Assembly (NCBI GenBank): GCA_002366545.1
Contig: DFBH01000074.1
Location: forward strand, 1,033-65,032
Direction of reading: 5' to 3'
Source: Candidatus Oleimmundimicrobium americanum
GTDB taxonomy: Bacteria; Actinomycetota; Aquicultoria; UBA3085; Oleimmundimicrobiaceae
Length of the DNA stretch: 64,000 nt
Below are positions 11,361 through 59,937 of the stretch, piece by piece (position 1 is the stretch's first letter; each line of letters opens with the position of its first letter). The position numbers were made by a program, and so were the translations under genes. Below the pieces are notes generated by a model that saw only the letters and a list, made by a program, of their open reading frames with translations, was not told the DNA's origin and made no database searches.

Positions 11361-11768
11361 CTATTTACCGCCGCACTTTTTAGCCATCTCTTTAATTATA
11401 TCACTAGCTGCTAAAACACCTACAGGTCTATGCAAAGGGGGCTCGCTCATAATGACCAGGTGATGGATGTGTTTCTCCTGCATAATGGCAACAGCTTCAG
11501 AAACAAGCGCGTCGGGATTAACAATAATGGCACTGCCTCCCAGCACGTCTTCAGCAGTCACCTTATCGACATTTTTTCCATAAGCCTTCAATAAACCCAG
11601 GTCTGAGATGACACCACAAGCCTCACCGACTTCATCTACCACAACGACGCAGTGAACATCGTTTTCAGCCATCGTTTGAGCTATCTCGGAAACAAGTGCT
11701 TCAACATCGCAAGTAACAACGCCCCTATGCATGAGATCCCTCGCTAATAAACTTTCCATTTTTCCCAT
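11361..11768 (-). CDS. CBS domain pair protein
   Basis: Two CBS-like repeats in a 135-aa protein. Confidence 0.55.
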   Translation of the reverse strand: MGKMESLLARDLMHRGVVTCDVEALVSEIAQTMAENDVHCVVVVDEVGEACGVISDLGLLKAYGKNVDKVTAEDVLGGSAIIVNPDALVSEAVAIMQEKHIHHLVIMSEPPLHRPVGVLAASDIIKEMAKKCGGK

Positions 11769-12161: not shown

Positions 12162-14858
12162 CTATTTACTCCCAACCTTATCTATTCTCACTGCACATAC
12201 CTTAAACTCGGGAATCTTTGATACCGGATCGAGTGCGGGGTTGGTGAGCATATTTATTGGAGATTCCTTGAAGTGGAAGGGCACAAATATGGTCCCCTTG
12301 GGTATGTGTGAAGTTATACGTGCTTTAACTTTTACTTTTCCTCGGCGCGAGGAAAGTTCGACCCAATCATTATCTTTTATTTTAAGTTTTTTAGCATCTA
12401 CAAAATTTATCTCAACTCTGGCTTCCTTGCAAACCTCATTAAGACCCATGGAACGCCTGGTCATCGTGCCGGTGTGAAAGTGATACAGAAGTCTTCCTGT
12501 GATTAGGATAAACGGATAATCTTTATCGGGCTGCTCAGCAGGTGCTTTGTATTCAACGGCATGAAACTTGCCCAGTCCCCGCGTAAATTTCGCTGTATGA
12601 AGAATCGGTGTCCCCTGATGCGTTGCATCCGGACACGGCCACTGAACACTTTCCTCGCTTACCCTTTCAAATATTATTCCACCATAGGTTGGGGTAATAC
12701 TTGCAATCTCATTGGTAATCTCACCAACCGCAGCGTAATTCATATCATAACCCATGGCCTTCGCCAAATTGGAGATTATCAGCCAATCCGGTCGGGAGTT
12801 GCCAACCGGGGCAATGGCCCTTCTTACTCTCTGAACTCTTCTTTCGGTATTTGTAAACGTTCCATCCTTCTCAGCAAAAGTAACTCCCGGCAACACAACG
12901 TCGGCAAATTCAGCCGTCTCAGTTAAAAACACATCCTGAACAACCAAAAAATCCAACTTCTTAAAAGCCTCTTTCACGTGGTTTAAATCGGGGTCCGAAA
13001 GCATCGGGTTTTCGCCCATAACATACATCGCTTTAACTTCGCCACGCAAAACAGCATCCATCATCTCGGTGGCAACTAACCCGGGCTTTTCTGGAAGCTT
13101 TACTCCCCAAACATCTTTACATTTCTTAATAATCCCCAAATCACAGATGTTTTGATATCCGCTCACACAACCGGGAAGTGCCCCCATATCACAAGCACCC
13201 TGAACGTTGTTTTGTCCGCGAAGCGGATTTACCCCCGTTCCCGGCCTCCCAATATTTCCGGTAAGCATCGCCAAATTGGCAACGGAGAGAACATTGTCTG
13301 TACCCGTAGTATGCTGAGTGATGCCCATGGAATAAAAGATTGCTCCTTTTTCGGCCGAAGCGAATAATCTTGCTGCCTCCCTTAAAGAATCAGCGGGAAT
13401 ACCTGAAATATTCTCAACTTCCTCGGGCGTATATTTTGAAACCGTCTTCTTTAACTCTTTATAATCTTCCGTTCGTTTATCGATAAAATCCTTATCTTCC
13501 AAGCCCTCTTCGATTATCACGTTCATAAGCCCGTTTAAGACGGCAACATCGGTTCCCGGTTTTTGTGAAAGCCACATATCAGCATACTCCGTCAGTCGAA
13601 TCTCTCTGGGATCAATTACGATAAGCTTTACCTCAAAATCGGAGACCGCCCTCTTCATCTCAAGAGCAACTATGGGATGATTTTCGGTGGTATTTGAGCC
13701 AATAACAAGAATCACATTGGCCTCGTGTATATCGGCGATAGAATTCGTCATCGCTCCGCTTCCAAATGCTTTGACCAGACCGGCCACGGTTGGAGCGTGT
13801 CACAAGCGAGCACAGTGGTCGATATTGTTTGTGCCAATCACCGCCCTCATAAATTTCTGCATCAGATAATTTTCTTCGTTGGTACACTTTGCTGAGGAAA
13901 GACCGGCAATCGCGTCAGCGCCGTGTTTTTTCTTTATCTTTGAAAACTTGTCTGCAACAGTTTTAATCGCCTCATCCCAAGAAACTTCAACAAGTTTCCC
14001 GTCCTTTCGAACCAACGGAGAAGTAAGCCTGTCGGGATGGTTCACAAAGTCATAACCAAAACGGCCTTTTACACAAGTATTCCCCTTATTCACACCGCTC
14101 TCGACATCGGCTGAAACACAAATAATCTCTCCGTTTTTGATTTGGAGTTCCAACTCACACCCACAACCACAATAAGGACAGACTGTCTTAACTTTCTCTG
14201 TCTCCCAAACTCGCCCCTTGTATCTGCTCATCTTCTCGGTTAAAGCACCGGTGGGGCAGGTTGATATACACTGTCCGCAAAGTTCACATTTTGTTTCAAT
14301 AAGTGACTTGTCATAAGGAGTTGTTACTACCGAATCAAAACCTCGATTTGCGAAAGTATACACTTTATTCTGTTGAATCTCTTCACAAATGCGAACGCAG
14401 CGACCGCAAAGGATGCACTTGTTTGGGTCTCTTTCAATCAAGGGATTATAGTCTTCTATGGTGTAGATATGTTTTTCACCTTTAAACCGATTCTCTTCTA
14501 TTCCCAATTCGTAAGCTAAATCTTGAAGTTGACATTGGCCGGCGCTCTCACAAGTCAAGCAACTTAACTCATGATCGGAAAGTAAAAGCTCAACTATCGT
14601 TCTCCGTATTTTATAGAGAGGAATGGTATTTGTCCTAACAGCCATTCCATCGCCAACCTTGGTTGCGCAGGCAGGCAAAAAATTCCTCGCCCCCTCAACT
14701 TCGACGAGACAAACTCTGCAGGCTCCATAAGACTTGAGCCGCGGATCGTGGCAGAGCGTTGGGATTTTTATTCCATTTTCTTTAGCAACCTCAAGTATGG
14801 TTTGACCTGGTTCAGCTTCAATTTTTTCTCCATTTATTGTCAAATTAATTTTAGACAT
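12162..14858 (-). CDS. fdhA: formate dehydrogenase alpha subunit, selenocysteine-containing (in-frame UGA at 13800-13802)
   Basis: The N-terminal ORF (13800..14858) ends '...[11 protein letters not shown]' at a TGA. The same frame continues '[21 protein letters not shown]...', which matches the FdhF-type 'CARV-U-HGPSVAGL' Sec active-site motif. The N-terminus has a NuoG-type 2Fe-2S plus 4Fe-4S region. The C-terminus has a molybdopterin oxidoreductase domain. Confidence 0.85.
13750..13799 (-). promoter_or_regulatory. putative bacterial SECIS element immediately 3' of the UGA-Sec codon
   Basis: The mRNA after UGA reads CACGCUCCAACCGUGGCCGGUCUGGUCAAAGCAUUUGGAAGCGGAGCG. It has CGCUCC/GGAGCG complementarity and a GGUCUG core resembling the fdhF SECIS apical region (from memory). 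The fold has not been computed. Confidence 0.4.
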
Positions 14859-14873
14859 ACATGTTTCCCCCGT

Positions 14874-15302
14874 TTATTTTTCCTTCTTCTTTGCAACTCT
14901 CGCCCCAACCTCAATTAAGACACAGTCAATAAAGTCTTTAATAAAATTGGCTATGTCAGATGTAGAGACAATTCCTACAACTTTTCCATCGACCGTAACC
15001 GGCAAATATCTTATTTCAAGCTCCTCAAGCAAATGAGCAGCTTTTGTTGCCTCCATCTCAGGAGAAACAGAAACCATGCTCTCATACATAAAATCATTTA
15101 CTTTGGTCTTTTCAACATTTAAACCGGCACCAACAACCTCAACGCCTATCATCCTATCGGTAATTATTCCAAGAAGTTTTTCGTTGTCGACAACCAAGAG
15201 CGAGCCAACCTTTCTTTCTCTCATCATGGTCGCCGCTTCCTTCACCGTAGCGCCGGGGGAAATCGATACAGCGCCCCTGGTCATTATGTCTTTAACTAAC
15301 AT
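14874..15302 (-). CDS. CBS domain pair protein
   Basis: Two CBS repeats in a 142-aa protein. Confidence 0.55.
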   Translation of the reverse strand: MLVKDIMTRGAVSISPGATVKEAATMMRERKVGSLLVVDNEKLLGIITDRMIGVEVVGAGLNVEKTKVNDFMYESMVSVSPEMEATKAAHLLEELEIRYLPVTVDGKVVGIVSTSDIANFIKDFIDCVLIEVGARVAKKKEK

Positions 15303-15324: not shown

Positions 15325-17142
15325 CTACTTAGCAATATATATAGCATCGAACGGACAGTGCTGCATACAAATGCCACATTTTACACATTTGGTCACATCT
15401 ATTTCGTGTGGCTGTTTCTTTTCCCCGGTAATCGCTCCCATTGGACAATGTTTCTTACAAACTCCACATCCTCTGCACACATTCTCTTTAATTACATAGG
15501 CAATGAGCTCAGAACATACCCCCGCGCGACATCTTCCCTCTTTAACATGCTCCTCAAACTCTTCTTGAAAATACTCAAGCATCGTAAGAATTGGGTTGGG
15601 AGCAGTTTGCCCTAAACCACAAAGCGATGCGACCTTAACATCTCGAGCTAATTCTTCTAAAAGAACCAATTCCTTTTCGTCGCTCTCCCCCTTGGTCATC
15701 CTTTCAAGCATCTCGAGCATCCGTTTGGTTCCAACCCGACAAGGAACACATTTCCCACAGGATTCCTTCTGGGTAAAAGTCAAAAAGTATTTTGCTAAAT
15801 CAACTACACAGGAGCTTTCATCCATAACAACCATTCCGCCTGAGCCCACAATGGCTCCCGTTTGAGTCAAGGACTCATAGTCTATTGGCGTATCAAGAAA
15901 CTCAGTCGGGAGACACCCGCCGGATGGCCCGCCTATTTGAACCGCTTTGAACTTTTTATCGTCCTTTATCCCACCACAAATATCAAATATCACTTTTCTA
16001 AGAGTGGTACCCATGGGCACCTCGACCAATCCGCCGTTTTTGACCTTTCCTGTAACCGCAAAAATTTTGGTACCCTTGCTTTTCTCCGTCCCAATGGCAG
16101 CAAACTTGTCAGCACCGTTCGTTATTATCCAGGCAATATTTGCAAGCGTTTCAACGTTGTTAATGTTGGTGGGCTTACCCCAAAGCCCGGACTGTGCCGG
16201 GAAAGGCGGACGAATCCGAGGCATGCCTCTTTTACCCTCAATTGAAGCCATGAGGGCCGTCTCTTCTCCACAGACGAAAGCCCCGGCTCCTTCCTTCATT
16301 TTAATTTCAAAATCAAAAGAGCTGCCAAGAATGTTTTTGCCCAAAAAGCCCTTCTTTTTAGCATGCTCAACCGCAATCTTAAGTCGCTTAACAGCCAAAG
16401 GATATTCGGCCCTAACATATATATATCCCTCGGACGCACCAATAGCGTAAGCAGCTATCATCATTCCTTCAAGCACGCTGTGAGGATCGCCCTCCAAGAC
16501 ACTCCTATCCATAAATGCTCCGGGATCTCCTTCATCAGCATTACAAATAACATACTTCACAGCCCCGGGGGCTTTTTGGGCAAAACTCCACTTAAGACCG
16601 GTGGGAAATCCTGCCCCACCGCGACCCCTTAAGCCAGAGGCTTTAACTTCTTCAACAACCTCTTCGGGGGACATCTTGTTTAAAACCTTCTCAAGCGCTT
16701 TATATCCGCCACTCTCGATATAGTCATCGATTTCTTCGGGATTAATTTGTCCGCAGTTTCTAAGAACTATCCTATTCTGTTTTTGATAAAAGTTTATATC
16801 CTTATAAAGAGAAATCTTTTTACCGGTCCGCGAATCTTCATAGAGCAAATCCTCTACAACCTCGCCGCCAATTAAATGCTCCTCGACGATTCGAGACACG
16901 TTCTCCGCGGAAACCGTAGGATAAAAAACTCCCTCGGGCTGAATAACAACGATCGGACCCTGCTGACAAAAACCGTGACACCCGGTTTGAACAATATCAA
17001 TTTCAGAAATTTTCCGCTTTTTAAACTCCTCTTTAAAAGCGGATTTCACTTTTTCAGAGCCACTTAAAACACAGCCGGTCCCCGTACAAATAAAAACCTT
17101 GTTTTGCTTTTCTTTAACTTTTACTTTGACCACAATTTTCAC
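15325..17142 (-). CDS. NuoF-like NAD(P)H-binding flavoprotein subunit with C-terminal 2x[4Fe-4S] (HydB/HndC/FdhB type)
   Basis: 'GLRGRGGAGFPTGLKW' FMN/NADH motif, 'ESCGKCVPCRVGT' N3 cluster motif, an N-terminal thioredoxin-like Cys4, and two CxxCxxCxxxCP motifs at the C-terminus. Confidence 0.8.
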   Translation of the reverse strand: MKIVVKVKVKEKQNKVFICTGTGCVLSGSEKVKSAFKEEFKKRKISEIDIVQTGCHGFCQQGPIVVIQPEGVFYPTVSAENVSRIVEEHLIGGEVVEDLLYEDSRTGKKISLYKDINFYQKQNRIVLRNCGQINPEEIDDYIESGGYKALEKVLNKMSPEEVVEEVKASGLRGRGGAGFPTGLKWSFAQKAPGAVKYVICNADEGDPGAFMDRSVLEGDPHSVLEGMMIAAYAIGASEGYIYVRAEYPLAVKRLKIAVEHAKKKGFLGKNILGSSFDFEIKMKEGAGAFVCGEETALMASIEGKRGMPRIRPPFPAQSGLWGKPTNINNVETLANIAWIITNGADKFAAIGTEKSKGTKIFAVTGKVKNGGLVEVPMGTTLRKVIFDICGGIKDDKKFKAVQIGGPSGGCLPTEFLDTPIDYESLTQTGAIVGSGGMVVMDESSCVVDLAKYFLTFTQKESCGKCVPCRVGTKRMLEMLERMTKGESDEKELVLLEELARDVKVASLCGLGQTAPNPILTMLEYFQEEFEEHVKEGRCRAGVCSELIAYVIKENVCRGCGVCKKHCPMGAITGEKKQPHEIDVTKCVKCGICMQHCPFDAIYIAK

Positions 17143-17922
17143 CTATTTTAGATAAGAATGACAATAAAGTACTTCATTTCTCAACACTCTGACGGTCTTT
17201 ACAACATCCATTAATTCTTTATCAAAAGGATTCGCGATAACGGCATCCAAACCAACGGTTGCAAGCATGGCAAGATACGTTCTATCCAGAAGCGGTTTAG
17301 TCTCAGCGGGTGCTCCATTTGAAATATTGCTTAATCCGACGACCGTCTTAAGCGGAGGGTCATTTAATTGCCTGAACATCTTTATCGCCTCAATTGCCTC
17401 CTGAGCTTGTTCTTGAGCAACGGCGATCGGAAGGATTAACGGATCGAGATAGAGATTTTCCATCGGAACCCCTTTCTCCGCCATCTTCGCCATGATATCA
17501 ACCGCTATCGCCATCCTTTCATTGGCGTCACGCGGTATCCCTGTTTCAGTCATGGTCAATCCGATGACTTTTGCATTATATTTTGCGGCTAAACCCATCA
17601 TCGTCTCAAGCCGGTTTGGTTCCCCTGAAGCAGAGTTTATAATTGGCTGTTTCTTGCAAACCTTTAACCCCGCTTCCATGGCTTCAGCATTAGTGGTATC
17701 CAAACAAAGTGTTACATCAGCCACCTCTTGAACAGCATTTACAATCCACTCCATCATCTCCGTACCATTTTTGCGAGCCGGTCCTATGTTTATGTCTAAA
17801 ACGTTCGCTCCGGCCTCAATCTGAGCAACAGCTAAATCCTGAATCGGTTTTGGATCACGATCTTTCATCGCAGAACCGATTACTTTTGAAATAACATTAA
17901 TTTTCTCACCAATAATTAACAT
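17143..17922 (-). CDS. acsE: methyltetrahydrofolate:corrinoid iron-sulfur protein methyltransferase AcsE (pterin-binding)
   Basis: 'MLIIGEKINV...RDP.PIQ...LDINIGPA...LCLDTTN...INSAS...LYLDPLILP' is near-colinear with Moorella AcsE (from memory). Length is 259 aa. Confidence 0.75.
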   Translation of the reverse strand: MLIIGEKINVISKVIGSAMKDRDPKPIQDLAVAQIEAGANVLDINIGPARKNGTEMMEWIVNAVQEVADVTLCLDTTNAEAMEAGLKVCKKQPIINSASGEPNRLETMMGLAAKYNAKVIGLTMTETGIPRDANERMAIAVDIMAKMAEKGVPMENLYLDPLILPIAVAQEQAQEAIEAIKMFRQLNDPPLKTVVGLSNISNGAPAETKPLLDRTYLAMLATVGLDAVIANPFDKELMDVVKTVRVLRNEVLYCHSYLK

Positions 17923-17937
17923 TTAAACCTCCTGTTT

Positions 17938-18453
17938 TTAATTAAGTTTTTTCTCTTTAGCTCTTGTGTTACGTATAATTTCTCGAGCTTTTTTGGGCGT
18001 CAAACGCCCATGCGTTTCGTCATTTATCCTCATAACAGGGGCAAGACTACAAGCTCCCAAACATGCAACCGACCTTAAAGTAAATTGACGATCATGAGTT
18101 GTTTCCCCTTCTTCAATGCCTAATTCATCAGCCAACGCTTCCGTTATTCTTTTTGCGCCACTTACATAACAAGCCGTCCCATGACACACAGAAATCACGT
18201 TTTTGCCGACCGGAACAAGAGAGAACTGCGAATAAAAAGTGGCTACACCGTAAAGCTGGCTTAATGGAATCCCTGTCGCCTCCGAGACGCAGTCCAAAAC
18301 ATCTTCGGAAAGATAACCGAATTTTTTCTGTATCTCCTGAAGTAGTGGAATGGTTGCTCCAGCATAATTTTTGTACTTTTCAACGATATCTAAAATTTCA
18401 GAGTTATTAAATTCTCCACCATTTAATTTTTCACACTTACATAGACACGCCAT
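17938..18453 (-). CDS. NuoE-like [2Fe-2S] thioredoxin-like subunit (HydC/HndA type) with extra N-terminal Cys cluster
   Basis: 'CHGTACYVSGA...VACLGACSLAPV' is the NuoE 2Fe-2S motif. The N-terminus carries 'MACLCKCEK'. Confidence 0.75.
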   Translation of the reverse strand: MACLCKCEKLNGGEFNNSEILDIVEKYKNYAGATIPLLQEIQKKFGYLSEDVLDCVSEATGIPLSQLYGVATFYSQFSLVPVGKNVISVCHGTACYVSGAKRITEALADELGIEEGETTHDRQFTLRSVACLGACSLAPVMRINDETHGRLTPKKAREIIRNTRAKEKKLN

Positions 18454-19531: not shown

Positions 19532-20590
19532 TTAGCCAAAATACTTCTCTCTCAAAGCCGAAGAAAGCTCTGACGTTAATCTGATGCTCTTTTCCGCCAA
19601 TTCTTCGATCATTGAGCCTGTACCACAATTTGGTGTAATTAAGCTCGCTTCAAGAAGCTTTGTTTTATTTATTCCCTTGTCGACCAGCAACTGGACTTTA
19701 TCTTCAAACTTATCGAGAATGCCCTCCAAGGTTTCATTCGCTATCGCATCGGGGCTTGGGTAGGTGGATGGGACTATCCCCCAGGCAAGAATTCCACCCC
19801 TATCTAAAAATTTATTTAGTTCCTGTGGGTAAAGGGACATGCTTTCAGTATGATCATATGCATCAAAACTTATAATGTTAACGGTAGTTTCCATTAAAAG
19901 GCTCCAGTCGGTGCGACCGCAACAATGAACGCCGCAAAGACCATCAACCGCATAAAAACACTCATTTAAATAGGAGATAACCTCTTCTTTATTTAATTTT
20001 ATATACGACGAACCGTAAGACTGAAGATAGGGTTCATCAAAAAAGATAACCGTTTTAACATCGGGAACCAATTTTTTAAATTCCCTCTCCTGCCATTTTG
20101 CCTTCATGGTAAGCGTTTTTATTATGGCGTCCCTTAAAAGGTCGTTGTAAAGAACCGCTTGTTTATTTTGGTCCGTAACGGTTAAGCCAAAACTAATCGG
20201 TCCGGTTAACTGGCCCTTGAGCATAACCAAATCACTTGGCAGATGTTTCCTCAATATATCCAACATGGTGTGAAGCCCTCGAGCATAATCAGCAGATATC
20301 GCGAAATAATCCAAATCTTCAGCCAGAAATCTATCGTAGAACTTCTCAAGCTCCCAAACCAAATTTTCTCTTGCTTCCAAATGAATTTTCTTCTTTTCTT
20401 CATCTATCCTTACCCCAGGCATGCCCTCTGAAATCTGAACACACATACTCTCCTTAAAAGAGAGGTTGGGGAGTTGAGGCCACACCGGAATCTGCGGAGT
20501 ATTTTTAAGAACCACTTCACAAGCTTTAACTGCATCGATATGTGGCATGCTACCAACGGTCATCGGAAGACAACGAGGTTTAAACTCCAT
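19532..20590 (-). CDS. MetE C-terminal-domain-like / URO-D superfamily zinc methyltransferase-like protein
   Basis: Candidate Zn ligand pattern His/Cys/Glu/Cys: 'GVHCCG', 'FFDEPYL', 'TPNCGTG'. Length is 352 aa. It lies last in the hdrC-hdrB operon. Confidence 0.45.
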   Translation of the reverse strand: MEFKPRCLPMTVGSMPHIDAVKACEVVLKNTPQIPVWPQLPNLSFKESMCVQISEGMPGVRIDEEKKKIHLEARENLVWELEKFYDRFLAEDLDYFAISADYARGLHTMLDILRKHLPSDLVMLKGQLTGPISFGLTVTDQNKQAVLYNDLLRDAIIKTLTMKAKWQEREFKKLVPDVKTVIFFDEPYLQSYGSSYIKLNKEEVISYLNECFYAVDGLCGVHCCGRTDWSLLMETTVNIISFDAYDHTESMSLYPQELNKFLDRGGILAWGIVPSTYPSPDAIANETLEGILDKFEDKVQLLVDKGINKTKLLEASLITPNCGTGSMIEELAEKSIRLTSELSSALREKYFG

Positions 20591-31118: not shown

Positions 31119-33072
31119 TTTCCAGATCCCTCCTCATCTCCATGTCGTAAAGCACCCTCTCTTTCTCACGATCTATCCCTAAAGCTTTTCTTTTTGCATC
31201 AATGTGTTTAATTATTGTCTTGGCCATCTTAAAGGGATCGGGTTCATAAAACCACTTGCCACCCGTCATCTCCTTAATATCTTTAAAAAGATAATCCGAC
31301 ACCACCTCACTATTGGCCGTCGGGAAAGAGACACCGAAACCGGTCGGAACTCCGCTGGAAACAAAATATTGACCAATGACTACAGCCTTCTCACTCATCC
31401 ACTCGGGAGCACAACCCGCAGCCGGCACTTCATTTAAATCCTCGCCAAGACCACCTTCTTTAACTATCTCCGAGGCAGCAATAAGAATCCGGCTGTTATC
31501 CACGCACGAACCGCAATGAAGCACGGGAGGAATACCCACTGCCTCGCAGACCTCACGCAAACCGGCACCCGCAAGCTCAGCGGCTTCAGGAATAAGCAAT
31601 CTTTCTTTTGCGCAGCTTATCGCGGCGCACCCGGTCACCAAAACAAGCACATTGTTTGCGATAAGTTCTTTAACTAAAGTAGTGTGAACATAATCATGTT
31701 TAACCCGAGGGTTGTTGCATCCCACAACACCGACAACCCCCTTTATCCTGCCATTGATTATATTATCGTTTAACGGCTTGTAAGAGGCACGGAACCGTCC
31801 ACCAAGCAAATACTTTATGGTCTCGTGAGAAAAACCCGCGATTAGGTCAATTTCTTCCTTAGGAATATCGACCCTCCCTCTTTTGGGATAATTTTTAATT
31901 GCCCGCCTGACGATATCTTTTGCAATTTTAAGAGCGTCGTGATGATTAAACTCTATATGTGTAGCACCCAAAATCTTACCCTTCGCTGAGGTGGTAATTA
32001 CCTCAGTGTGATAACATTTAGCCACAGTGGGCAGAGATTGCATGATACATTGAACATCGACAACCATGACATCAACCGCACCTGTGGCAATAGCCAGTTC
32101 CTGCTGTAAGAAGTTACCGGCTACCGGAACACCTTTGCGCATCAAAAGCTCGTTTGCCGTACAACATATGCCGGCAATATTTATACCCTTAGCGCCCACC
32201 TTTTTAGCCTCTTCGATCAGCTCGGAGTCACTTGCAGCAGCAACTATCATCTCCGAAAGCAACGGCTCATGACCGTGAACTATTACGTTAACTTGATTCT
32301 CTTTAAGAACTCCTAAATTCACCTTTGACCTGACTGGAGCGGGAACACCAAAGAGGATATCCTGTAATTCGGTTGCCATCATAGAGCCACCCCAACCATC
32401 GGCCAAAGAGGTTCGGCAACCATGAAGCAAGATGTTTTTATAGTCCTGGTCAACTCCCATGTGAGTTCGATGCATCGTTTCCACTATTTCGCGATCTACC
32501 CCTCGGGGAGATATGCCTTCTTTTCTCCAACGCTCTTGTCTTTTCTCCGGAGCCTGTTTTACAAAAATTATCTCACCTTGTTGCTTCCCCATCTCAGCAA
32601 GAGCTTTCTCGCCCAACTCCAGAGCTATCTGGTTTTTATCCTTACCCTCCATATTAATATCAAAAATTTTGGCCAACGCATGCAACTTTTCTTCATTCTT
32701 AATTTCATAACCAGGTGCCTCACCCTTCGCGGCAGCAATAAAAGTAAATATGACCTCTCTAGCGTGATCAGAGTGTGCGGCCGCGCCGGCGGCTATCATT
32801 CGAGCAAAATTTCTGGCCGCCACCGTAGAGGCAGTGGCACCACAAACTCCCGTCCTCGTCTCAGTTACCCTGCAAGGACCCATTGAGCACACTCTGCAAC
32901 AAGTCCCACCGGCGCCAAATGAACATGGCTTAAGGGAAGCAACCCTTTCAAAGACGGTCTCTGCCCCATCCTTTCTGGCCTTATCTATCATTTTGGCGCT
33001 TGCCGTGCAGCTGGTTTGCGTGCTTGCCGCAGGGTAAAATTTACTTTCTCCTTTTTTGCTTTGCTTTTTCAT
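31111..33072 (-). CDS. acsA: Ni-dependent carbon monoxide dehydrogenase catalytic subunit AcsA/CooS
   Basis: 'CSFGAGGTCCRVCSMGPCRV' B/D-cluster motif and overall CooS family architecture. Length is 653 aa. It overlaps acsB by 8 nt. Confidence 0.9.
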   Translation of the reverse strand: MKKQSKKGESKFYPAASTQTSCTASAKMIDKARKDGAETVFERVASLKPCSFGAGGTCCRVCSMGPCRVTETRTGVCGATASTVAARNFARMIAAGAAAHSDHAREVIFTFIAAAKGEAPGYEIKNEEKLHALAKIFDINMEGKDKNQIALELGEKALAEMGKQQGEIIFVKQAPEKRQERWRKEGISPRGVDREIVETMHRTHMGVDQDYKNILLHGCRTSLADGWGGSMMATELQDILFGVPAPVRSKVNLGVLKENQVNVIVHGHEPLLSEMIVAAASDSELIEEAKKVGAKGINIAGICCTANELLMRKGVPVAGNFLQQELAIATGAVDVMVVDVQCIMQSLPTVAKCYHTEVITTSAKGKILGATHIEFNHHDALKIAKDIVRRAIKNYPKRGRVDIPKEEIDLIAGFSHETIKYLLGGRFRASYKPLNDNIINGRIKGVVGVVGCNNPRVKHDYVHTTLVKELIANNVLVLVTGCAAISCAKERLLIPEAAELAGAGLREVCEAVGIPPVLHCGSCVDNSRILIAASEIVKEGGLGEDLNEVPAAGCAPEWMSEKAVVIGQYFVSSGVPTGFGVSFPTANSEVVSDYLFKDIKEMTGGKWFYEPDPFKMAKTIIKHIDAKRKALGIDREKERVLYDMEMRRDLEIV

Positions 33073-35618
33073 TTGGCGACTCCTTCTTTTGAAACACTCA
33101 CAGCAATTAACCGATCTTGCGGGCTCTTTAATTTTAAATCTATGCCATCGCTCGATAGAACACCTTGTTTATTGTGGCAACTGGGCATAAAAAACATCCC
33201 CTTGGGCAAGAAATCAAGTATCTTCGCCGAGGTTATAACCTTGCCCCGTCTCGATTTAACCGTGACTTTGCAGCCATCCTCAAGCCCCAAAGACGCAGCA
33301 TCATCTGAATTAAAAACAACATAATCTCCCATGTTTGGTTCAAGCTCAGATAGTTTGGAATTTTTTGTTCTAACTCCATCATAGAACCCAAACGTTGTTT
33401 CTCCAACAATTAAAGTATAAGGATATTTTTTATCAGGCTCTTCACCGGAAATCTTGGGCTCCACTAAGGTGAACTTATATGTATTTTTTTCGATTTTCTT
33501 TGGGATAGAAACCAGAGACTTTATTTCCTTGGCAATCTCCTTTTCAGAAGAGTAGTCCATGGTGTAATTTACTTTTTTGGACAAGGCGACTACCGTTTCC
33601 CAATCAGCTTGGACCAAAGGTTCAATGGCTGTCCTAACTTCTTTTGTCCGATATTCCATATTAACAATGGTCCCATTGCTTTCAGCTAAAGTTACGCCCG
33701 GCAACACAACATCGGCCAATTTTGCAGTTTCCGTCAAAAAGGTATCTTGAACCACCAGGAAATCTAAGGATGAAAACGACTTAGCCACGCTGGAAGAGTT
33801 GGGAAGTTGAGCAACCGGATCTGCCCCAATTATATACATTCCAAGAATGGATGAACCCATTCCGTCCAGCATCTCCTTAATAGAAAGTCCGGCTTCTTTG
33901 GAAAGCTTTACTCCCCAGGCCTTTTCAAAATCGCTCCCGGCTTCATCCGCTTTTCTTACACCCGGATAAAATTCAGCCAACGCTCCCATGTAAACCGTGC
34001 CCCACAGATTAGAAGAGAGAAGGCACGGAAGAACGCTCGCTTTGGTTTTACCTGTTAAAAGAGAGATGTCGGCAATCAATTCCATGGTTTGAGGGCTTAC
34101 CGTCTCGGCCCCAAAGATTATAACCGTCTTCTTCCCTTCGCCATAGAGCTTTGCGGCTTCCTTTAAAACATCTTTAGAAATTCCCGACTCTCTTTCCACC
34201 GTTTCCATCTTCAATTTGCCAAGAGATTTCTTTAAGTCCTCAAATTTACCGCATTTCTTGGCAAATTCTTCATCATAAACCTTACCGTCAAGTAACTCTT
34301 TCAAAAGCCCGCTTAAAACAAACTCATTGGAGCCGGCCATTGACTGAATGTGTATATCAGCTTTCTCAGAAATTTTTGTCCTTCCGGCATCTACAACTAC
34401 CAGCTTTGCCCCGTTTGAAAGCGCTCTTTTTACTGCTACACCCACGCGAGGATAGGCCACTGTAACATCCGCGTTTACGAGCAAGAGAGCATCGGCTTCT
34501 TCAATGTTTTCCATTGAAACAACGGCTCCATCTCCCAGCGCTTCGTATAAATCAACCAAAGCGGGAAAACCGAGAAGTCTGGCGGAACTATCAATGTTAT
34601 TCGTCCCAATCCCGGCCCTTAAAAACTTTTGGAATAAGTAAGCAACCTCGTTTGTGTTCCCCGCACCAATAAAACCACCAATCCTATTTGCCCCATGGGC
34701 TTTTCTTATATCAAGAAGACGCTCTGCCGCAAACTCAAAGGCCTCTTCGTAGGTGCTCTCAGTTAAAACCCCGTTCTTTTTAATTAAAGGCTTGGTAATT
34801 CGCTTGGAGCTTTCCACAAAATCCCATCCAAATCTGCCCTTTGCGCAAAGAAAATCTCCGAGGCTCTCGCCGGTTGCTCTCATAATCTGCCCATCTACGG
34901 TACCAAATACGAGGTCACAGCCACAACCGCAATAAGAGCAGACCGTTTTAGTCTCTTCCATCTCCCATTCTCGCCCACGAAAACGCCTATCAACTTCAAG
35001 CAGCGCACCAACGGGACAAACCGCAAGACAACTGCCGCAGAAATCACAGCCCGATTCCTGCAGGGGCTTATCCATTGGTGTCGCCACTTTGGTAACCATA
35101 CCCCGCTTTACAAAATCGATAACATCTGCCCCCTGTGTTTTGCAAATTCCCACACATCGTCCGCACAAAATACAGAGATTGTAATTCCTCTCTATAAAAG
35201 GATTGCTTCTGTCAATCTCGTAACCGGGATCCTTCATTGAAAAAGCGGTTTTCTCAATCCCAAGCTCATAAGCATACTTCTGAAGCTCACAAGCCCCGTT
35301 TTTATCACAACTCATACAATCACCGGGATGATTTGAAAGTATCAGCTCCAGAACAAAACGTCTGGCTTCCCGAACTTTCTCGGTATCAGTATCAATCACC
35401 ATTCCATCCTTAACTTTCCGAGCGCATGAGGCCACGAGCCCTTTGGCCCCCTCAATCTCGACCAAACAAACTCTACACGACCCCGTACTGGGCAAGCATT
35501 CACAATAACAGAGATGGGGGATGTCTATCCCCGCCATCTTGGCCGCCTGAATGATGAGTATCCCTTCAGGAACCTTTGCTTCTTTTCCATTTATCATTAC
35601 GGTGATTTGCTCACTCAA
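33069..35618 (-). CDS. NuoG/FdhA-like molybdopterin-oxidoreductase-family subunit lacking the catalytic Sec/Cys (Leu at that position)
   Basis: The N-terminus has 2Fe-2S plus 4Fe-4S motifs like fdhA. The central motif is 'GTNNIDSSARL-L-GFPALVDL', where fdhA has 'CARL-U-HAPTVAGL'. It overlaps acsA by 4 nt (ATGA). Confidence 0.7.
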   Translation of the reverse strand: MSEQITVMINGKEAKVPEGILIIQAAKMAGIDIPHLCYCECLPSTGSCRVCLVEIEGAKGLVASCARKVKDGMVIDTDTEKVREARRFVLELILSNHPGDCMSCDKNGACELQKYAYELGIEKTAFSMKDPGYEIDRSNPFIERNYNLCILCGRCVGICKTQGADVIDFVKRGMVTKVATPMDKPLQESGCDFCGSCLAVCPVGALLEVDRRFRGREWEMEETKTVCSYCGCGCDLVFGTVDGQIMRATGESLGDFLCAKGRFGWDFVESSKRITKPLIKKNGVLTESTYEEAFEFAAERLLDIRKAHGANRIGGFIGAGNTNEVAYLFQKFLRAGIGTNNIDSSARLLGFPALVDLYEALGDGAVVSMENIEEADALLLVNADVTVAYPRVGVAVKRALSNGAKLVVVDAGRTKISEKADIHIQSMAGSNEFVLSGLLKELLDGKVYDEEFAKKCGKFEDLKKSLGKLKMETVERESGISKDVLKEAAKLYGEGKKTVIIFGAETVSPQTMELIADISLLTGKTKASVLPCLLSSNLWGTVYMGALAEFYPGVRKADEAGSDFEKAWGVKLSKEAGLSIKEMLDGMGSSILGMYIIGADPVAQLPNSSSVAKSFSSLDFLVVQDTFLTETAKLADVVLPGVTLAESNGTIVNMEYRTKEVRTAIEPLVQADWETVVALSKKVNYTMDYSSEKEIAKEIKSLVSIPKKIEKNTYKFTLVEPKISGEEPDKKYPYTLIVGETTFGFYDGVRTKNSKLSELEPNMGDYVVFNSDDAASLGLEDGCKVTVKSRRGKVITSAKILDFLPKGMFFMPSCHNKQGVLSSDGIDLKLKSPQDRLIAVSVSKEGVAK

Positions 35619-35635
35619 CTCTTCTCCTCCTTTAG

Positions 35636-36157
35636 TTAAACGATTTCTATGGCATCGGCTTCACATACGGCCAAACACTCGCCACATTTGGTGCACTTTT
35701 TATTCTTAATGTAGTAGGGTTTATTGTCCGAAAGATACGAAACCATCTTCTCTCCCACAATTGCATCCTCAGGACAAACCTCTTTACAAGCTCCGCAAAT
35801 CGTACATTTCTCGGAATTTATCTGGTAACTCACAATAGTTTCACAAGATTTTTGAGCGCAATACTTGTCCTTTATGTGTTCTTCGTATTCATTTTTAGAT
35901 GAGGACAATGAGTCCTTTACAAAAGTAGCCGCGTCCTTACCCAGTTTGCATCGAGCAGTATCCACGATATAAGAAGATATTTCATCGAGCAAAACAATGT
36001 CTTCTTCTTCTCCTTTTCCATTTGTAATTCTCTCTAAAACATCGATCATTCGCACCGTTCCAAGCATACAGGGCAGGCACTTACCGCACATCTTATCCTT
36101 GGCAAATCCCTTTAAGAATTCAAGTACTATCAAGACCGGGCAACCATCGCTGCTCAT
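35636..36157 (-). CDS. stand-alone NuoF C-terminal-like FeS protein (N3-type 'CGKCLPC' motif + 2x[4Fe-4S] ferredoxin)
   Basis: 'MCGKCLPCMLGT' plus 'CTICGACKEVCP' and 'CTKCGECLAVCE'. It is colinear with the C-terminal 170 aa of the adjacent NuoF-like protein. Confidence 0.6.
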   Translation of the reverse strand: MSSDGCPVLIVLEFLKGFAKDKMCGKCLPCMLGTVRMIDVLERITNGKGEEEDIVLLDEISSYIVDTARCKLGKDAATFVKDSLSSSKNEYEEHIKDKYCAQKSCETIVSYQINSEKCTICGACKEVCPEDAIVGEKMVSYLSDNKPYYIKNKKCTKCGECLAVCEADAIEIV

Positions 36158-38052
36158 GTAGCCACCTCCTGCTTACCGGTAGGAGTAGATTTTCGTTCAA
36201 ACTGCCTCACAACACAACCGGTCGGGCATACTCCTATACAAGCCCCGCACTTTTCACAATATGATAAATCGATATAGAATCTGTCTCGCTCTTCCACAAT
36301 CGCGTCAAAAGCACACGCCTCCTTGCAAAGGCCGCAAAGAAGACAATCCTCCTCGTTTATCCGGTAATGGCCAAGTGCCGCACATTGCCCAGCCGGACAA
36401 TATTTATCCCTTATGTGAGCTTCATACTCATCTCTAAAATATTTAATGGTTGAAAGCACGGGATTGGGTGCACTCTTACCTAAACCACATAGAGCAGTTT
36501 CTTGAATATGTTTGCCGATGCTTTCCAAACGCTCAATATCTCCTTCTTCACCCTTGCCTTCGACAATTCTACTTAAAATCTCAAGCATCTCATGTGTCCC
36601 AATCCTGCAAGGCGGACATTTCCCGCAGGATTCCACCTGCGTGAAAGAGAGAAAATATCTTGCTAATTCAACCATGCAGTCGGACTCATCCATCACGACA
36701 AGTCCACCGGAGCCCATCATAGCCCCAGCTTCTGTTAATGAATCAAAGTCAACGAATAAATCCAAATATTCTTTTGGAAGACAACCGCCGCTAGGCCCTC
36801 CTGTCTGAACAGCTTTAAACTCTTTATCTCCCAAGATGCCACCGCCTATATCATAGACAATTTCCCGAATGGTTATTCCCATGGGAACCTCAATAAGACC
36901 AGTGTTCTTCACTTTTCCGGTAAGAGCAAATATTTTGGTTCCCGGAGAACCCTTCGTGCCTATGGAAGTGTACCAATCCGCTCCCTTAATTATTATTGGG
37001 GGAACATTAGCAAAGGTTTCAACATTATTTAACACGGTGGGTTTATCCCATAGCCCTCTCTCCACAGAACGAGGAGGAGTGGTTCGAGGCATTCCCCTTT
37101 TGCCCTCGATAGAAAACATGAGTGCCGTCGATTCTCCACAAATGAAAGCTCCCGCCCCACGTTTTATTTCCAAATCGAAATCAAAACCACTCCCAAGGAT
37201 ATTTTCACCCAAAAGACCAATCTCTCTCGCTTGGTTAATGGCTATTGTTAGATTATCAACCGCCAAGGGATATTCTTGTCTTACATATATAAATCCCTCT
37301 TTGCAATTGCCCAGAGCATAGGCTCCTATTATCATGCCTTCGATGACAGAATGAGGATCACCCTCCAAAACACTTCTATCCATAAAGGCCCCCGGGTCAC
37401 CTTCGTCACCGTTGCAAACAATATACTTTACGTCACCTTTTGTTCTTCGACCGCCTTCCCACTTTCTTCCCGCAGGAAAACCTGCCCCACCTCGACCTCT
37501 TAAATTAGATTTTTTAACCTCTTTTATCACTTCTTCCGGGGTCATATCATTTAAAACTTTTGCCAACGCTTCATAGCCACTGGCCACTATGTAATCTTCT
37601 ATATTGATAGGATCAACATGGCCACAATTCCTTAAAACTATCCTATGCTGTTTACCATAAAAGGAAATTTCCTCTTCTTTAACAGCAAGTTCGCCGATGA
37701 CAGGATCAACCACTTGCAACCGATCAACGACCTTGCCGCGATTTATTGTAAGGTCAACTATTTTCGCCGCATCAAATGGATCAACCTTTTGATAAAAAAC
37801 ATCTAAGGGCTCCACAATTACAACAGGACCTTTTTCGCACAATCCCTGGCAACCCGTGGGTCTTATCTCAAAATCGATGCCTTGTTTGACGGCTTCCGCT
37901 TTGAAGGCCTCAACAACCTTTTGTGCACCGGAAGCGCGGCATCCTGTCCCGCTGCAGACCCGAACTATCGTCTTTTTCTGCTTCGCTCTTTCGCTACATA
38001 TTTTTTTTCTCAAGACACTTAGTTCATTAGGGCTTTTAAACTTACTCATCAT
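36154..38052 (-). CDS. NuoF-like NAD(P)H-binding flavoprotein subunit with C-terminal 2x[4Fe-4S]
   Basis: 'NLRGRGGAGFPAGRKW', 'ESCGKCPPCRIGT', two C-terminal ferredoxin motifs. The probable start is ATG 38052 (RBS AAGGAAG, 8-nt overlap with the upstream nuoE-like stop) rather than 38082. Confidence 0.8.
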   Translation of the reverse strand: MMSKFKSPNELSVLRKKICSERAKQKKTIVRVCSGTGCRASGAQKVVEAFKAEAVKQGIDFEIRPTGCQGLCEKGPVVIVEPLDVFYQKVDPFDAAKIVDLTINRGKVVDRLQVVDPVIGELAVKEEEISFYGKQHRIVLRNCGHVDPINIEDYIVASGYEALAKVLNDMTPEEVIKEVKKSNLRGRGGAGFPAGRKWEGGRRTKGDVKYIVCNGDEGDPGAFMDRSVLEGDPHSVIEGMIIGAYALGNCKEGFIYVRQEYPLAVDNLTIAINQAREIGLLGENILGSGFDFDLEIKRGAGAFICGESTALMFSIEGKRGMPRTTPPRSVERGLWDKPTVLNNVETFANVPPIIIKGADWYTSIGTKGSPGTKIFALTGKVKNTGLIEVPMGITIREIVYDIGGGILGDKEFKAVQTGGPSGGCLPKEYLDLFVDFDSLTEAGAMMGSGGLVVMDESDCMVELARYFLSFTQVESCGKCPPCRIGTHEMLEILSRIVEGKGEEGDIERLESIGKHIQETALCGLGKSAPNPVLSTIKYFRDEYEAHIRDKYCPAGQCAALGHYRINEEDCLLCGLCKEACAFDAIVEERDRFYIDLSYCEKCGACIGVCPTGCVVRQFERKSTPTGKQEVAT

Positions 38053-38557
38053 TCTCTTCCTTTTTATTTTTAAGAATTGCAATTATCTTCTTCGGATTTT
38101 TCTCTCTTGAAACTTCTTCGTTTACCACCACAACAGGGGCAAGGGCACAACACCCCACACAACTTACCGTTTCAAGCGTGAACTCAAAGTCGTCGGTCGT
38201 CTCGCCGGCTTTTATGCCAAGCTCTTCTTCTAGTCCTTCAAGAATTATCTTTGAACCGCGAACGTGACAAGCCGTGCCCGTGCAAACTTTAATTATATTT
38301 TTGCCTCGCGGAGTGAAATAAAAATGCGCGTAAAACGAGGCCACTCCATAAACGTGAGCCAGAGATAAATCAAATTCATCAGCGATGACTCCAATCGCTT
38401 CTCCGGGCAAAAAACCAAATTCTTTCTGAACATCTTGAAGAGCGTGTACAAGCACCCCTCTTCTGCCTTTATATTTTTTTAAAAGCTCACAAACGCGACC
38501 CGTATCTACTTGAACTTTTACATCTTCCTTCTTGGTATTGCATGCGCAACCGCACAT
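38042..38557 (-). CDS. NuoE-like [2Fe-2S] subunit with N-terminal 'MCGCAC' Cys cluster
   Basis: 'CTGTACHVRGS...VSCVGCCALAPV' is the NuoE motif. Confidence 0.75.
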   Translation of the reverse strand: MCGCACNTKKEDVKVQVDTGRVCELLKKYKGRRGVLVHALQDVQKEFGFLPGEAIGVIADEFDLSLAHVYGVASFYAHFYFTPRGKNIIKVCTGTACHVRGSKIILEGLEEELGIKAGETTDDFEFTLETVSCVGCCALAPVVVVNEEVSREKNPKKIIAILKNKKEENDE

Positions 38558-48607: not shown

Positions 48608-50386
48608 TCAAACACCCTTCGCTATGCATGTTTTGTTACGGCCACCCTTCTTGGCTTGATACATTGCTTGATCCGCTCTATCAAATAAAAGCGGAGAATC
48701 CTTTATCCCCAAGGAAAAAGAGGCAATCCCCAAACTCAAAGTTATCGGAATGCGTTTTCCTTCAAAAATAAAATCAAATTCTTCCGTCTTGCTGCGTAAC
48801 TTTTCCGCAACCGCAAAAGCTTCCGTTTTTGTAATTTGAGGTAAAATTATCGCAAATTCGTCCCCTCCTTGACGAGCGGGCATGTCGGCCTCGCGCAAAT
48901 TCTTGAGCAATATTTTGGCAACCATTTTTAAAACCTCATCACCTCTTAGATGCCCATACGTATCGTTTATTAACTTAAATCGGTCGACATCGAAAACTAT
49001 AACGGAGAGCGCTGAGCCATAGCGTTTAGCTCTATTTACTTCCCTCTCAAGGGAGTAGGTAAAACCATAATGGTTTAACAATCCAGTAAGTGTATCTCTC
49101 ATGGACATTTTTTTTGCATCTTCTTTTATTCGGCTCATAAGCTTTTTTTGATAGGGAAAACATGTGCTCCAATCCGTCATTCCTTTGTAGATTGCAAGCG
49201 CATTTTCGCTACAGGTTTTATGACCACAAGCACCGCAATTGAGCTCGTCTTCTGGAGAAGAAATTTCTGCCTTTACCATCAATTCCCTTAACTCCTCTTT
49301 TGTCGGAGAAACCGTATCAACCGCTTTATTTGCAAAAGTTCTCCTCAGCCCAATTTCAGGCAAATTGGGAACTATCTCAGAAAAATCAGACCATTTAATT
49401 TTTCTTCTTTCTTTACTGTAATTTTGTTGTATTTGTTTTTTCAAAGCATACAAACTTCGTCCTCCGGCAAGCCCATTTCTCATAATAGGTCCATCAATAC
49501 AGCCGTTACAGCCCAAAGCGTCCACAAAGCATGCTCGGACTTCGTTTGTATTTAAGGCTTCCGCTAGAGCCTGAACACTATCTGCTCCTCTAGCCACCTT
49601 AAAATTACGACTAATTGTATTTATTTTTTTCATAAACTGCTTAGGCAGTCCCCCCGGCAAAGAATTTACACGGGGAACTCGTTCAACCGGCTCCAGTTTT
49701 GCTCCCGTCAACGACCGAAGATCTATTTCCGAGTCTTCAAACATCTTTTTTAGTTCGGAAAAGGTTATAACTACATCAATAGCACCCTTAGCAGATTCAT
49801 CCATCGCTTCGGCTCTTTGAGCAACACAAGAGGTTATATACATAGTGTGAGCTTCTTCATACAACGCCTTACAGAGACGCCCCTGCGCAATCATAGGAGA
49901 TACAATCGGCGCCAGGATAGAGACGAGATCGGGAAAATACTTTTCTATAAAACTCACAACAACAGGACAGGTGGAACGAATTATCGGGAAATCCTCGTCT
50001 TGGCTCAAAATCCTCATATACTCGGCGGCTACAAGCTCTTCCCCCAAGATTGTTCCCTCAACAACATCGAAGCCAAGTTTGATAAGACCGGCAGCAATTT
50101 CGGTTGAGCCAAACGGCTGAAAAGCAACGAGATATTCAGGGGCCAAAATTGCAATAGCTTTACCTCTTTTTTTAGCAAGACGATATGCTCTTTTTGTGTT
50201 GTCTTTAAGTTTCAATGCCCCCCGAGAACAAGCTAAAACACACTCACCACAATATATACACGTTTCGTGCATAACCTCAACGTGTCCATCATTTACCTTT
50301 ATGCTCTTAACAGGACAAGCACGAACACAACTATAGCACTCTTTGCATTTATCAAAACTACCTTCTACAACTTCTATGAGCTCCAT
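48608..50386 (-). CDS. sensory-type [FeFe]-hydrogenase-like domain (HydS-like) fused to a C-terminal GGDEF diguanylate cyclase domain
   Basis: N-terminal 2x[4Fe-4S] ferredoxin. Degenerate H-cluster motifs: L1 'RSTCPVV' (single Cys), L2 'TSCVAQRAE', L3 'DALGCNGCIDGP'. An exact Cx2Cx4Cx16C accessory motif ('CGACGHKTC...16...C'). A C-terminal GGDEF domain: 'RQGGDEFAI', 'RYGG', 'DRFK'. Confidence 0.7.
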   Translation of the reverse strand: MELIEVVEGSFDKCKECYSCVRACPVKSIKVNDGHVEVMHETCIYCGECVLACSRGALKLKDNTKRAYRLAKKRGKAIAILAPEYLVAFQPFGSTEIAAGLIKLGFDVVEGTILGEELVAAEYMRILSQDEDFPIIRSTCPVVVSFIEKYFPDLVSILAPIVSPMIAQGRLCKALYEEAHTMYITSCVAQRAEAMDESAKGAIDVVITFSELKKMFEDSEIDLRSLTGAKLEPVERVPRVNSLPGGLPKQFMKKINTISRNFKVARGADSVQALAEALNTNEVRACFVDALGCNGCIDGPIMRNGLAGGRSLYALKKQIQQNYSKERRKIKWSDFSEIVPNLPEIGLRRTFANKAVDTVSPTKEELRELMVKAEISSPEDELNCGACGHKTCSENALAIYKGMTDWSTCFPYQKKLMSRIKEDAKKMSMRDTLTGLLNHYGFTYSLEREVNRAKRYGSALSVIVFDVDRFKLINDTYGHLRGDEVLKMVAKILLKNLREADMPARQGGDEFAIILPQITKTEAFAVAEKLRSKTEEFDFIFEGKRIPITLSLGIASFSLGIKDSPLLFDRADQAMYQAKKGGRNKTCIAKGV

Positions 50387-59661: not shown

Positions 59662-59937
59662 CTACCCTTCCACCATTTTAATCACGTCGAAAGGGCACTC
59701 CGTGGCGCAAATTCCGCACCCTTTGCAATAATCCATATCAATCCCTCTCACCTTACCGTCTTTTACTAAAATCGCGCCTTCAGGACAAGATATCCAACAA
59801 ATTAAACACTGCTTGCATTTTTCTTCATTCCACTTAGGAGCTTTCGAGCGCCAGCCACCTGTTTTATACTCCCTCGCTGTACCGCTTTTAGGAATAATTG
59901 CACCTGGCATAAGTTTGTTTGCCTGCCAATCTTTCAT
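59662..59937 (-). CDS. porD: 2-oxoacid:ferredoxin oxidoreductase delta subunit (2x[4Fe-4S] ferredoxin)
   Basis: 'CKQCLICWISCP' and 'CKGCGICATECP'. Confidence 0.85.
   Translation of the reverse strand: MKDWQANKLMPGAIIPKSGTAREYKTGGWRSKAPKWNEEKCKQCLICWISCPEGAILVKDGKVRGIDMDYCKGCGICATECPFDVIKMVEG

Follow-up and report, generated by a model that had tools for sequence, protein, structure and literature searches.

The subject of this analysis is fdhA, a gene for the catalytic subunit of formate dehydrogenase (FDH), which lies on the minus strand of a 64,000-nucleotide stretch (64 kb, hereafter the window) of contig DFBH01000074.1 (assembly GCA_002366545.1, positions 1,033 to 65,032 of the forward strand) from the actinomycetotal bacterium Candidatus Oleimmundimicrobium americanum. 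We conclude, with a probability of about 0.9, that positions 12162-14858 hold a single fdhA whose in-frame UGA, at codon 353, is decoded as selenocysteine (Sec) under the direction of a selenocysteine insertion sequence (SECIS), and that the product is a cytoplasmic formate dehydrogenase or CO2 reductase. Coordinates given here are positions in the window, and residue and codon numbers refer to the 898-codon frame of the following features:

12162-14858, minus strand: fdhA, formate dehydrogenase catalytic subunit, 898 codons, with the stop codon TAG at 12162-12164
13800-13802, minus strand: in-frame UGA, codon 353, the proposed Sec codon from alignment with Sec140 of FdhH and with the Cys of homologues

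Reading frame, product and relatives of fdhA

Two open reading frames (ORFs), 13800-14858 and 12162-13787, share a frame and have the TGA at 13802-13800 as their sole separator, as the original prediction had it and as translation of 12162-14858 bears out. Past the TGA the frame is open up to the TAG at 12164-12162, which yields 898 codons with one internal stop. The upstream ORF (14858-13803) begins with an ATG that has a Shine-Dalgarno-like run, GGGGGA, a few bases 5′ of it, and what is listed as the start of the downstream one, GTG 13787, is codon Val358 within the unbroken frame. In every public copy the locus is annotated as a gene pair, with products of 352 aa and 517-529 aa. On the gene-bearing strand of the 64 kb this is the only TGA-split pair of same-frame ORFs of at least 80 codons, and none of the other window genes has a TGA-bounded extension hinting at a second selenoprotein. 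A reassigned code, with UGA read as Gly or Trp, was considered and ruled out, because TGA is the normal stop of 13 of the 51 window genes; the code is therefore standard.

For profile scans of the read-through product, residue 353 was filled as Cys. The Pfam domains found (Fer2_4, NADH-G_4Fe-4S_3, Fer4_Nqo3, Molybdop_Fe4S4, Molybdopterin and Molydop_binding) describe an N-terminal, NuoG-like Fe-S domain and, after it, a molybdenum- or tungsten-bis-pyranopterin guanine dinucleotide (Mo/W-bis-PGD) domain, and the NCBIfam equivalog model TIGR01591, ‘formate dehydrogenase subunit alpha’, is passed with 919.6 bits (cut-off 666.25). In PDB, the solved alpha subunits of NAD-dependent FDHs (9wxb_B, 6tg9_A, which is FdsA, and 7vw6_A) align with the protein from end to end, and its catalytic part aligns also with FdhF of HDCR, with F420-dependent FDH and with FdhH of Escherichia coli. 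With the last taken from the annotated MG1655 locus (RefSeq NP_418503.1), the predicted alignment with the FdhF Sec motif CARV-U-HGPSVAGL holds, the UGA falling on Sec140. Of the Sec/Cys-His-Arg catalytic triad, the other members are present as H354 and R547 (FdhH His141 and Arg333), and the [4Fe-4S] ligands and Lys44 are kept, C227, C230, C234, C262 and K264 corresponding to FdhH C8, C11, C15, C42 and K44. Sec353 would be a metal ligand of a Mo- or W-bis-pyranopterin active site, with His354 as the next residue and Arg547 completing the site. Single chains of 774-952 aa make up 119 of the 120 best homologues, and these carry Cys at the UGA column (CARL-C-H); the outlier, P0039, has 1405 aa and is unreadable at the site.

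Scans of species-representative genomes and metagenomes gave 95 related loci, among which the distinct sequences that span the site have TGA in 24 cases and TGC or TGT in 23. Carriers of TGA are found in Actinomycetota (SpSt-1170), Dehalococcoidia/Chloroflexota, Thermodesulfobacteriota and Deltaproteobacteria, and in Clostridium carboxidivorans P7 and C. muellerianum. The closest relative, a metagenome-assembled genome (MAG) of Actinomycetota bacterium SpSt-1170 (locus L004, 85% identity), keeps the TGA and is syntenic with the window through a 352-aa ORF, cooC, nuoE-like, acsE, nuoF-like, CBS and fdhA, with 72-88% amino acid identity over eight genes. Between the two, synonymous divergence (dS) is near saturation, at 1.3-1.7 (1.3 for codons 354-898), and the ratio of nonsynonymous to synonymous divergence (dN/dS) amounts to 0.04 ahead of the UGA (codons 1-352) and 0.06 after it (codons 354-898). 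It follows that in both lineages translation goes on in frame beyond the UGA, which rules out a pseudogene and leaves a split gene very improbable. The closest Cys homologues, L105 and L106 (71% and 67% identity), have Cys at the site and lack the hairpin described below.

The hairpin downstream of the UGA codon

Counting the U of UGA as nucleotide (nt) 1, the window RNA reads UGACACGCUCCAACCGUGGCCGGUCUGGUCAAAGC from that point on, and the following features were located in it:

13772-13786, minus strand: SECIS apical hairpin, nt 17-31, seen in the minimum free energy (MFE) and centroid folds and with comparative support
13758-13802, minus strand: match of the covariance model R1, 59.8 bits, E 3.6e-15
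13747-13805, minus strand: sub-threshold match of the whole Rfam model SECIS_3 (RF01989), 42.4 bits, local E 6e-9 in a relaxed local search

The pairs U17-A31, G18-C30, G19-U29, C20-G28 and C21-G27, on which the MFE and centroid structures of RNAfold agree, enclose the loop G22 G23 U24 C25 U26 (13777-13781), the GGUCU(G) motif standing at nt 22-27. The hairpin begins 14 nt past the UGA and its loop G23 is 20 nt past the A of UGA; in bacterial SECIS elements the loop G lies about 20 nt downstream of UGA (PMC4605307). Of the stem-loop of about 50 nt that had been proposed here, the hairpin at the apex (nt 17/18-30/31, with the loop GGUCU) has stood up, and the long lower stem CGCUCC/GGAGCG was rejected as a conserved feature, since it shows no conservation; RNAalifold offers instead a second, weak hairpin (nt 34-50) that is free of compensatory changes. 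The RNAfold check suggested along with that proposal returned the hairpin, within a 68-nt fold of unremarkable energy (z = -0.93).

Comparison among relatives supports the hairpin. Pairs 18/30, 19/29, 20/28 and 21/27, together with a loop that starts GGU, are present in all 24 UGA loci and in one of the 23 Cys loci (Fisher p = 1.6e-12), and among loci with the same VAGL peptide the hairpin is found in 22/22 UGA and 1/7 Cys cases (p = 1.5e-5), both p-values being optimistic because the compared sequences are related. From 16 sequences RNAalifold predicts helix 18-21/27-30 de novo. An explicit count of pairs gives 100% of cells paired, as against 6-58% in slid controls, and double changes in three of the four core pairs; the observed covariation score was reached by none of 500 shuffles. 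G18-C30 is replaced by A18-U30 in three lineages, C21-G27 by A21-U27 in two sequences, and G19-C/U29 by U19-G29 in one, and the variation in the hairpin is compensatory and falls at synonymous or near-synonymous codon positions. The match of R1, a model built without the window and without L004, has as its second-best counterpart in the 64 kb one of 7.5 bits (Cys homologues score 8-50 bits and E. coli fdhF 14.9 bits); R1 is dominated by coding-sequence similarity and is therefore a consistency check only.

The likeness to the SECIS element of E. coli fdhF that the original prediction had noted is borne out, apart from the register of the helix. Both elements lie inside the coding sequence, with G22 G23 U24 C25 U26 at the same positions relative to UGA and with equal stability (minimal hairpin energies of -5.5 kcal/mol in the window and -5.7 in E. 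coli), but the helix register differs, a GGUC tetraloop being closed by A21-U26 in E. coli and a 5-nt loop by C21-G27 in the window. The E. coli element has a bulged U17, whereas in the window U17 is predicted to pair with A31; nt 17 is unable to pair with nt 31 in 12 of the 24 UGA loci, and the stem reaches 8 bp in some UGA-bearing lineages. The Rfam model for the E. coli element, SECIS_2 (RF01988), has no match in the window, and its threshold is passed by E. coli fdhF only. SECIS_3 comes closer, in that the whole model, UGA included, is matched in a register that joins nt 18-22 with nt 26-30 and leaves U17 unpaired, but in the window the bases that the model joins in its lower stem do not form canonical pairs. 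At gathering thresholds no Rfam family was matched in the whole window, and the Rfam SECIS models appear to be clade-specific. By analogy, the hairpin would be bound by SelB-GTP with its Sec-tRNA(Sec), and Sec would reach the ribosome ahead of termination by release factor 2.

Three variants were seen in relatives. In two Cys-codon homologues, L055 (2851-2895; TGT, GGU loop) and L008 (5998-6042; TGC, Spirochaetaceae, loop GGCCU), the hairpin is intact and may be the fossil of a SECIS element, left by a recent change from Sec to Cys. A UGA-bearing locus of Dehalococcoidales, L026 (5998-6042), has the loop GGUGC on the same stem, with the peptide VAGA in place of VAGL; judging by this variant, the loop seems to need only its bases G22, G23 and U24.

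Sec-decoding genes and alternative explanations

That the region encodes one Sec-type FdhA of about 898 aa and not two proteins, the core of the original prediction, is thus the reading favoured by the TIGR01591 match, the alignment of the UGA, the selection on both parts and the conservation of the hairpin. Several points weigh on the other side. SelB and tRNA-Sec are signature genes of the Sec-decoding trait (PMC1273633), and Pfam and NCBIfam scans together with precomputed contig annotations, which took in essentially every gene of the window and about 10 kb past its ends, gave no SelA, SelB or SelD domain. Neither these three genes nor tRNA-Sec were found in the window or in its contig flanks of about 2.9 kb and 8 kb. 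The stem is short, 5 bp with 4 of them conserved, where 6-8 bp are typical of bacterial SECIS elements (PMC4605307), and the 68-nt fold is no more stable than its shuffles. The SECIS_3 match falls short of the gathering score of 63, and no UGA-bearing relative reaches any Rfam SECIS gathering score. Related sequences are numerous in the TGA and Cys sets, whose independence the Fisher p-values overstate. Finally, the Bfu-type electron-bifurcating character proposed below for the enzyme is predicted purely from subunit homology.

The presence of Sec machinery, and with it the actual insertion of Sec at residue 353, is accordingly a prediction from the conserved UGA and SECIS. ARAGORN found no tRNA in the window, hence no selC, and the downstream flank of L004 has no sel genes; an AIRS/AIRS_C gene of L105 was entertained as SelD and rejected, since it adjoins hypC and hypD and is therefore HypE. 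Look-ups of the window proteins at 53814-55052 and 60635-61258 returned no records. In a 251,616-bp contig (L107; JGI 3300033144, Ga0366838_1000002) YbaB is identical and gene order is unchanged for the roughly 10 kb of L107 that overlap with the window, past whose high-coordinate end the contig runs for about 174 kb.

Four other accounts of the TGA have to be weighed against Sec. Near-cognate read-through, by which UGA would be decoded as Cys or Trp, either always, the sel machinery having been lost, or under selenium limitation, would agree with the lack of sel genes in the window and flanks and with the fact that the nearest full-length homologues work with Cys. We nevertheless think it improbable: in the UGA genes a hairpin with a GGU loop has been kept at a fixed distance by compensatory changes, against its presence in one of 23 Cys genes, a pattern that makes sense only with SelB-type recoding, and a lineage free of the machinery is expected to revert TGA to TGY by one transversion, whereas the TGA persists at dS above 1. 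A shade less probable is a pseudogene, inactivated when a nonsense mutation turned TGY into TGA. The TGA is indeed one substitution away from the Cys codons of the nearest full-length homologues, but such a mutation would have hit exactly the catalytic Cys/Sec codon, 1 of 898; the TGA is common to a relative saturated at synonymous sites, the 545 codons downstream of it have a dN/dS of 0.06 without further stops or frameshifts, and the same TGA occurs in 24 loci of several phyla, cultured Clostridium species included.

Two genuine polypeptides, the first ending at the UGA and the second starting from GTG 13787 or from the ATG of codon 370 (GAMTNS), with subsequent assembly, are what gene callers imply on all public contigs, and a GGAG-like run lies 5′ of the codon-370 ATG. 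This is very unlikely, given that the break would cut through the Molybdopterin domain just where the active site is; that the candidate starts are internal codons of the peptide VAGL...GSGAM, which is equally conserved in the unsplit Cys homologues; that a product from Val358 or Met370 would be without Sec353 and His354; and that, as noted, all but one of the 120 best homologues are unsplit chains of similar length. As to a TGA created by sequencing or assembly error, which had been named at the outset as a possible undoing of the Sec prediction, no evidence in its support was found and we assign it hardly any weight. The gene's 2,697 nt, the TGA among them, are the same in contigs of three assemblies from different pipelines (ENA ERZ27237536, JGI 3300001749 and Logan SRR1313318), some of whose underlying samples are possibly common, and the TGA is conserved in relatives.

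Operon context and known counterparts

Around fdhA, and like it on the minus strand, the window has a complete Wood-Ljungdahl cluster, whose gene names are our reading of Pfam annotations. The cluster comprises fhs, a RACo-type activase, cooC, folD, acsD, a NuoE/NuoF/Fer4/FdhA-like module, acsA (carbon monoxide dehydrogenase, CODH), acsB (acetyl-CoA synthase, ACS), acsC, hdrA-mvhD-metVF-hdrCB, cooC, nuoE-like, acsE, nuoF-like, CBS and fdhA; genes for a 2-oxoacid:ferredoxin oxidoreductase (POR gamma, alpha, beta) lie further along the window. The members considered here are:

14874-15302, minus strand: CBS-pair protein directly upstream of fdhA (Pfam CBS x2)
15325-17142, minus strand: NuoF-like flavoprotein of BfuB/HydB type (Pfam; full-length PDB matches)
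17143-17922, minus strand: acsE, methyltetrahydrofolate:corrinoid Fe-S protein methyltransferase (NF005719, 285 bits; Pfam Pterin_bind)
17938-18453, minus strand: NuoE-like 2Fe-2S protein of BfuC/HydC type (Pfam 2Fe-2S_thioredx; best PDB matches NfnC, HydC and related proteins)
33069-35618, minus strand: 849-aa FdhA/NuoG-like paralogue in the acs operon (39% identity to FdhA)

The partners of FdhA are probably the NuoE-like and NuoF-like subunits encoded next to it. The NuoF-like subunit has an N-terminal thioredoxin-like 2Fe-2S domain, a site for FMN and NAD(P)H, and a C-terminal 2x[4Fe-4S] domain, and along its full length it matches the B subunits of the electron-bifurcating enzymes HydABC, NiFe-HydABCSL, NfnABC and Stn with 750-880 bits, as against 399 bits for FdsB. 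By Pfam and PDB comparison the two window proteins have the B plus C subunit architecture that defines the Bfu type, and FdhA has a HydA/NuoG-like N-terminal cluster domain, as in Bfu-family enzymes. Since both B and C subunits of the Bfu enzymes match over their full length, the enzyme is most likely a three-subunit Bfu-type formate dehydrogenase or CO2 reductase, which would feed the Wood-Ljungdahl pathway's methyl branch.

Several known systems resemble it in part. E. coli FdhH (FdhF) has UGA at the homologous codon, in the shared motif CAR[LV]-U-H-x-P-[ST]-V-A-G-L, but is without the 220-aa NuoG-like N-terminal Fe-S domain and has hydrogenase 3, not NuoE/F-like subunits, as its partner. 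FdsGBA of Rhodobacter capsulatus and related NAD-dependent FDHs (6tg9/6tga, 9wxb, 7vw6) are the best solved matches to FdhA (788-795 bits, full length including the NuoG-like domain) and follow the same three-subunit logic of alpha, NuoF-like and NuoE-like proteins; the window NuoF-like protein, however, has extra N- and C-terminal Fe-S domains relative to FdsB, and the solved FdsGBA-type enzymes are, we presume, Cys enzymes at the active site. The W/Se FdhAB of Moorella thermoacetica (MOTH_2312-2314) may be regarded, by description, as a functional analogue, a Sec-containing NADP-dependent enzyme that serves the Wood-Ljungdahl pathway and whose FdhB differs in domain composition from HylB-type subunits (PMC5736913). 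Unlike FdhAB, the window has separate NuoE-like and HydB-type NuoF-like subunits, with acsE and the CBS gene interleaved. A second likely functional analogue is the Sec-containing FdhA partnered with HylCBA, which has also been described (PMC5736913). From the Bfu family, to which HylCBA-FdhF2 of Gottschalkia acidurici belongs, the window differs in having the NuoG-like domain fused to FdhA and no separate HylA.

The gene is an ordinary one of a well-known kind, a textbook case, and its reading, correct in our judgement, is useful for annotation; the finding makes no open question newly testable. FdhA is the most widespread bacterial selenoprotein, known from 822 organisms, with Sec use established in Actinobacteria (PMC5029168), and Sec versus Cys is known to differ among close FdhA relatives (PMC5736913). 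The nearest named relatives of the locus are Actinomycetota MAGs, SpSt-1170 and Candidatus Subteraquimicrobiales, of class Candidatus Aquicultoria, and the organism itself is probably an uncultured, deep-branching member of Actinomycetota (Aquicultoria-like). The relatives belong to the Wood-Ljungdahl-bearing actinobacterial lineages known from serpentinising and subsurface sites (PMC7325909; PMC9751293), and the former paper, on actinobacterial Wood-Ljungdahl genomes, does not mention selenium; a search for literature on the sample accessions found nothing. A tentative proposal, to which we would give rather less than even odds, is that this is the first noted use of Sec in Wood-Ljungdahl Actinomycetota (Aquicultoria/UBA1414-like), with a Sec-FdhA at the head of a three-subunit Bfu-type bifurcating CO2 reductase and with Sec and Cys forms that interconvert within the lineage. 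The practical consequence lies in metabolic reconstruction: because public copies are called as two genes, automated reconstructions of this acetogen-like member of Actinomycetota would see a broken FDH or miss its need for selenium. A requirement for selenium as well as for Mo or W is predicted, which is relevant to cultivation attempts.

The 849-aa paralogue had been held to carry Leu at the Sec position and hence to be non-catalytic for formate, and the comparison strengthens this. In a three-way alignment with FdhA and E. coli FdhH, Leu349, Gly350 and Leu533 replace Sec, His and Arg, with the Fe-S ligands kept, and the TIGR01591 score, 443.9 bits, is under the cut-off, in keeping with a protein that is very probably inactive on formate. 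Together with a second NuoE-like/HydB-type NuoF-like/Fer4 module, which it follows, the paralogue occupies 33069-38557 (minus strand), directly upstream of acsA and acsB. This module may be a Bfu-type bifurcating unit wired to CODH/ACS, in which the FDH-like protein serves as a mere Fe-S scaffold.

Other features of the neighbourhood can be noted briefly. The upstream CBS gene is kept just before fdhA in the Sec and Cys relatives L004, L105 and L106, and its product may thus be a partner dedicated to FDH, with a regulatory or nucleotide-sensing role; a second CBS-pair protein is encoded at 11361-11768 (minus strand), on the other side of fdhA. In the window and in L004 (1883-2656) the nuoE-like and nuoF-like genes have acsE between them; in the Cys-type L106 (12802-13581) it comes downstream of fdhA. 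Between the hdrB-like gene and cooC lies a 352-aa ORF (19532-20590, minus strand) with no Pfam match, whose C-terminus is 80% identical in L004; L106 has an unannotated 337-aa gene between cooC and the nuoE-like gene. A 592-aa protein (48608-50386, minus strand) joins 4Fe-4S dicluster, [FeFe]-hydrogenase large-subunit C-terminal and GGDEF diguanylate cyclase domains, and may be an H2- or redox-sensing synthase of cyclic di-GMP. In the gap between POR gamma and alpha (59665-59933, minus strand) there is an ORF of about 90 codons, under the 100-aa listing threshold, which equates to a 91-aa 4Fe-4S ferredoxin-like (PorD-type) gene called on L107 and L108.

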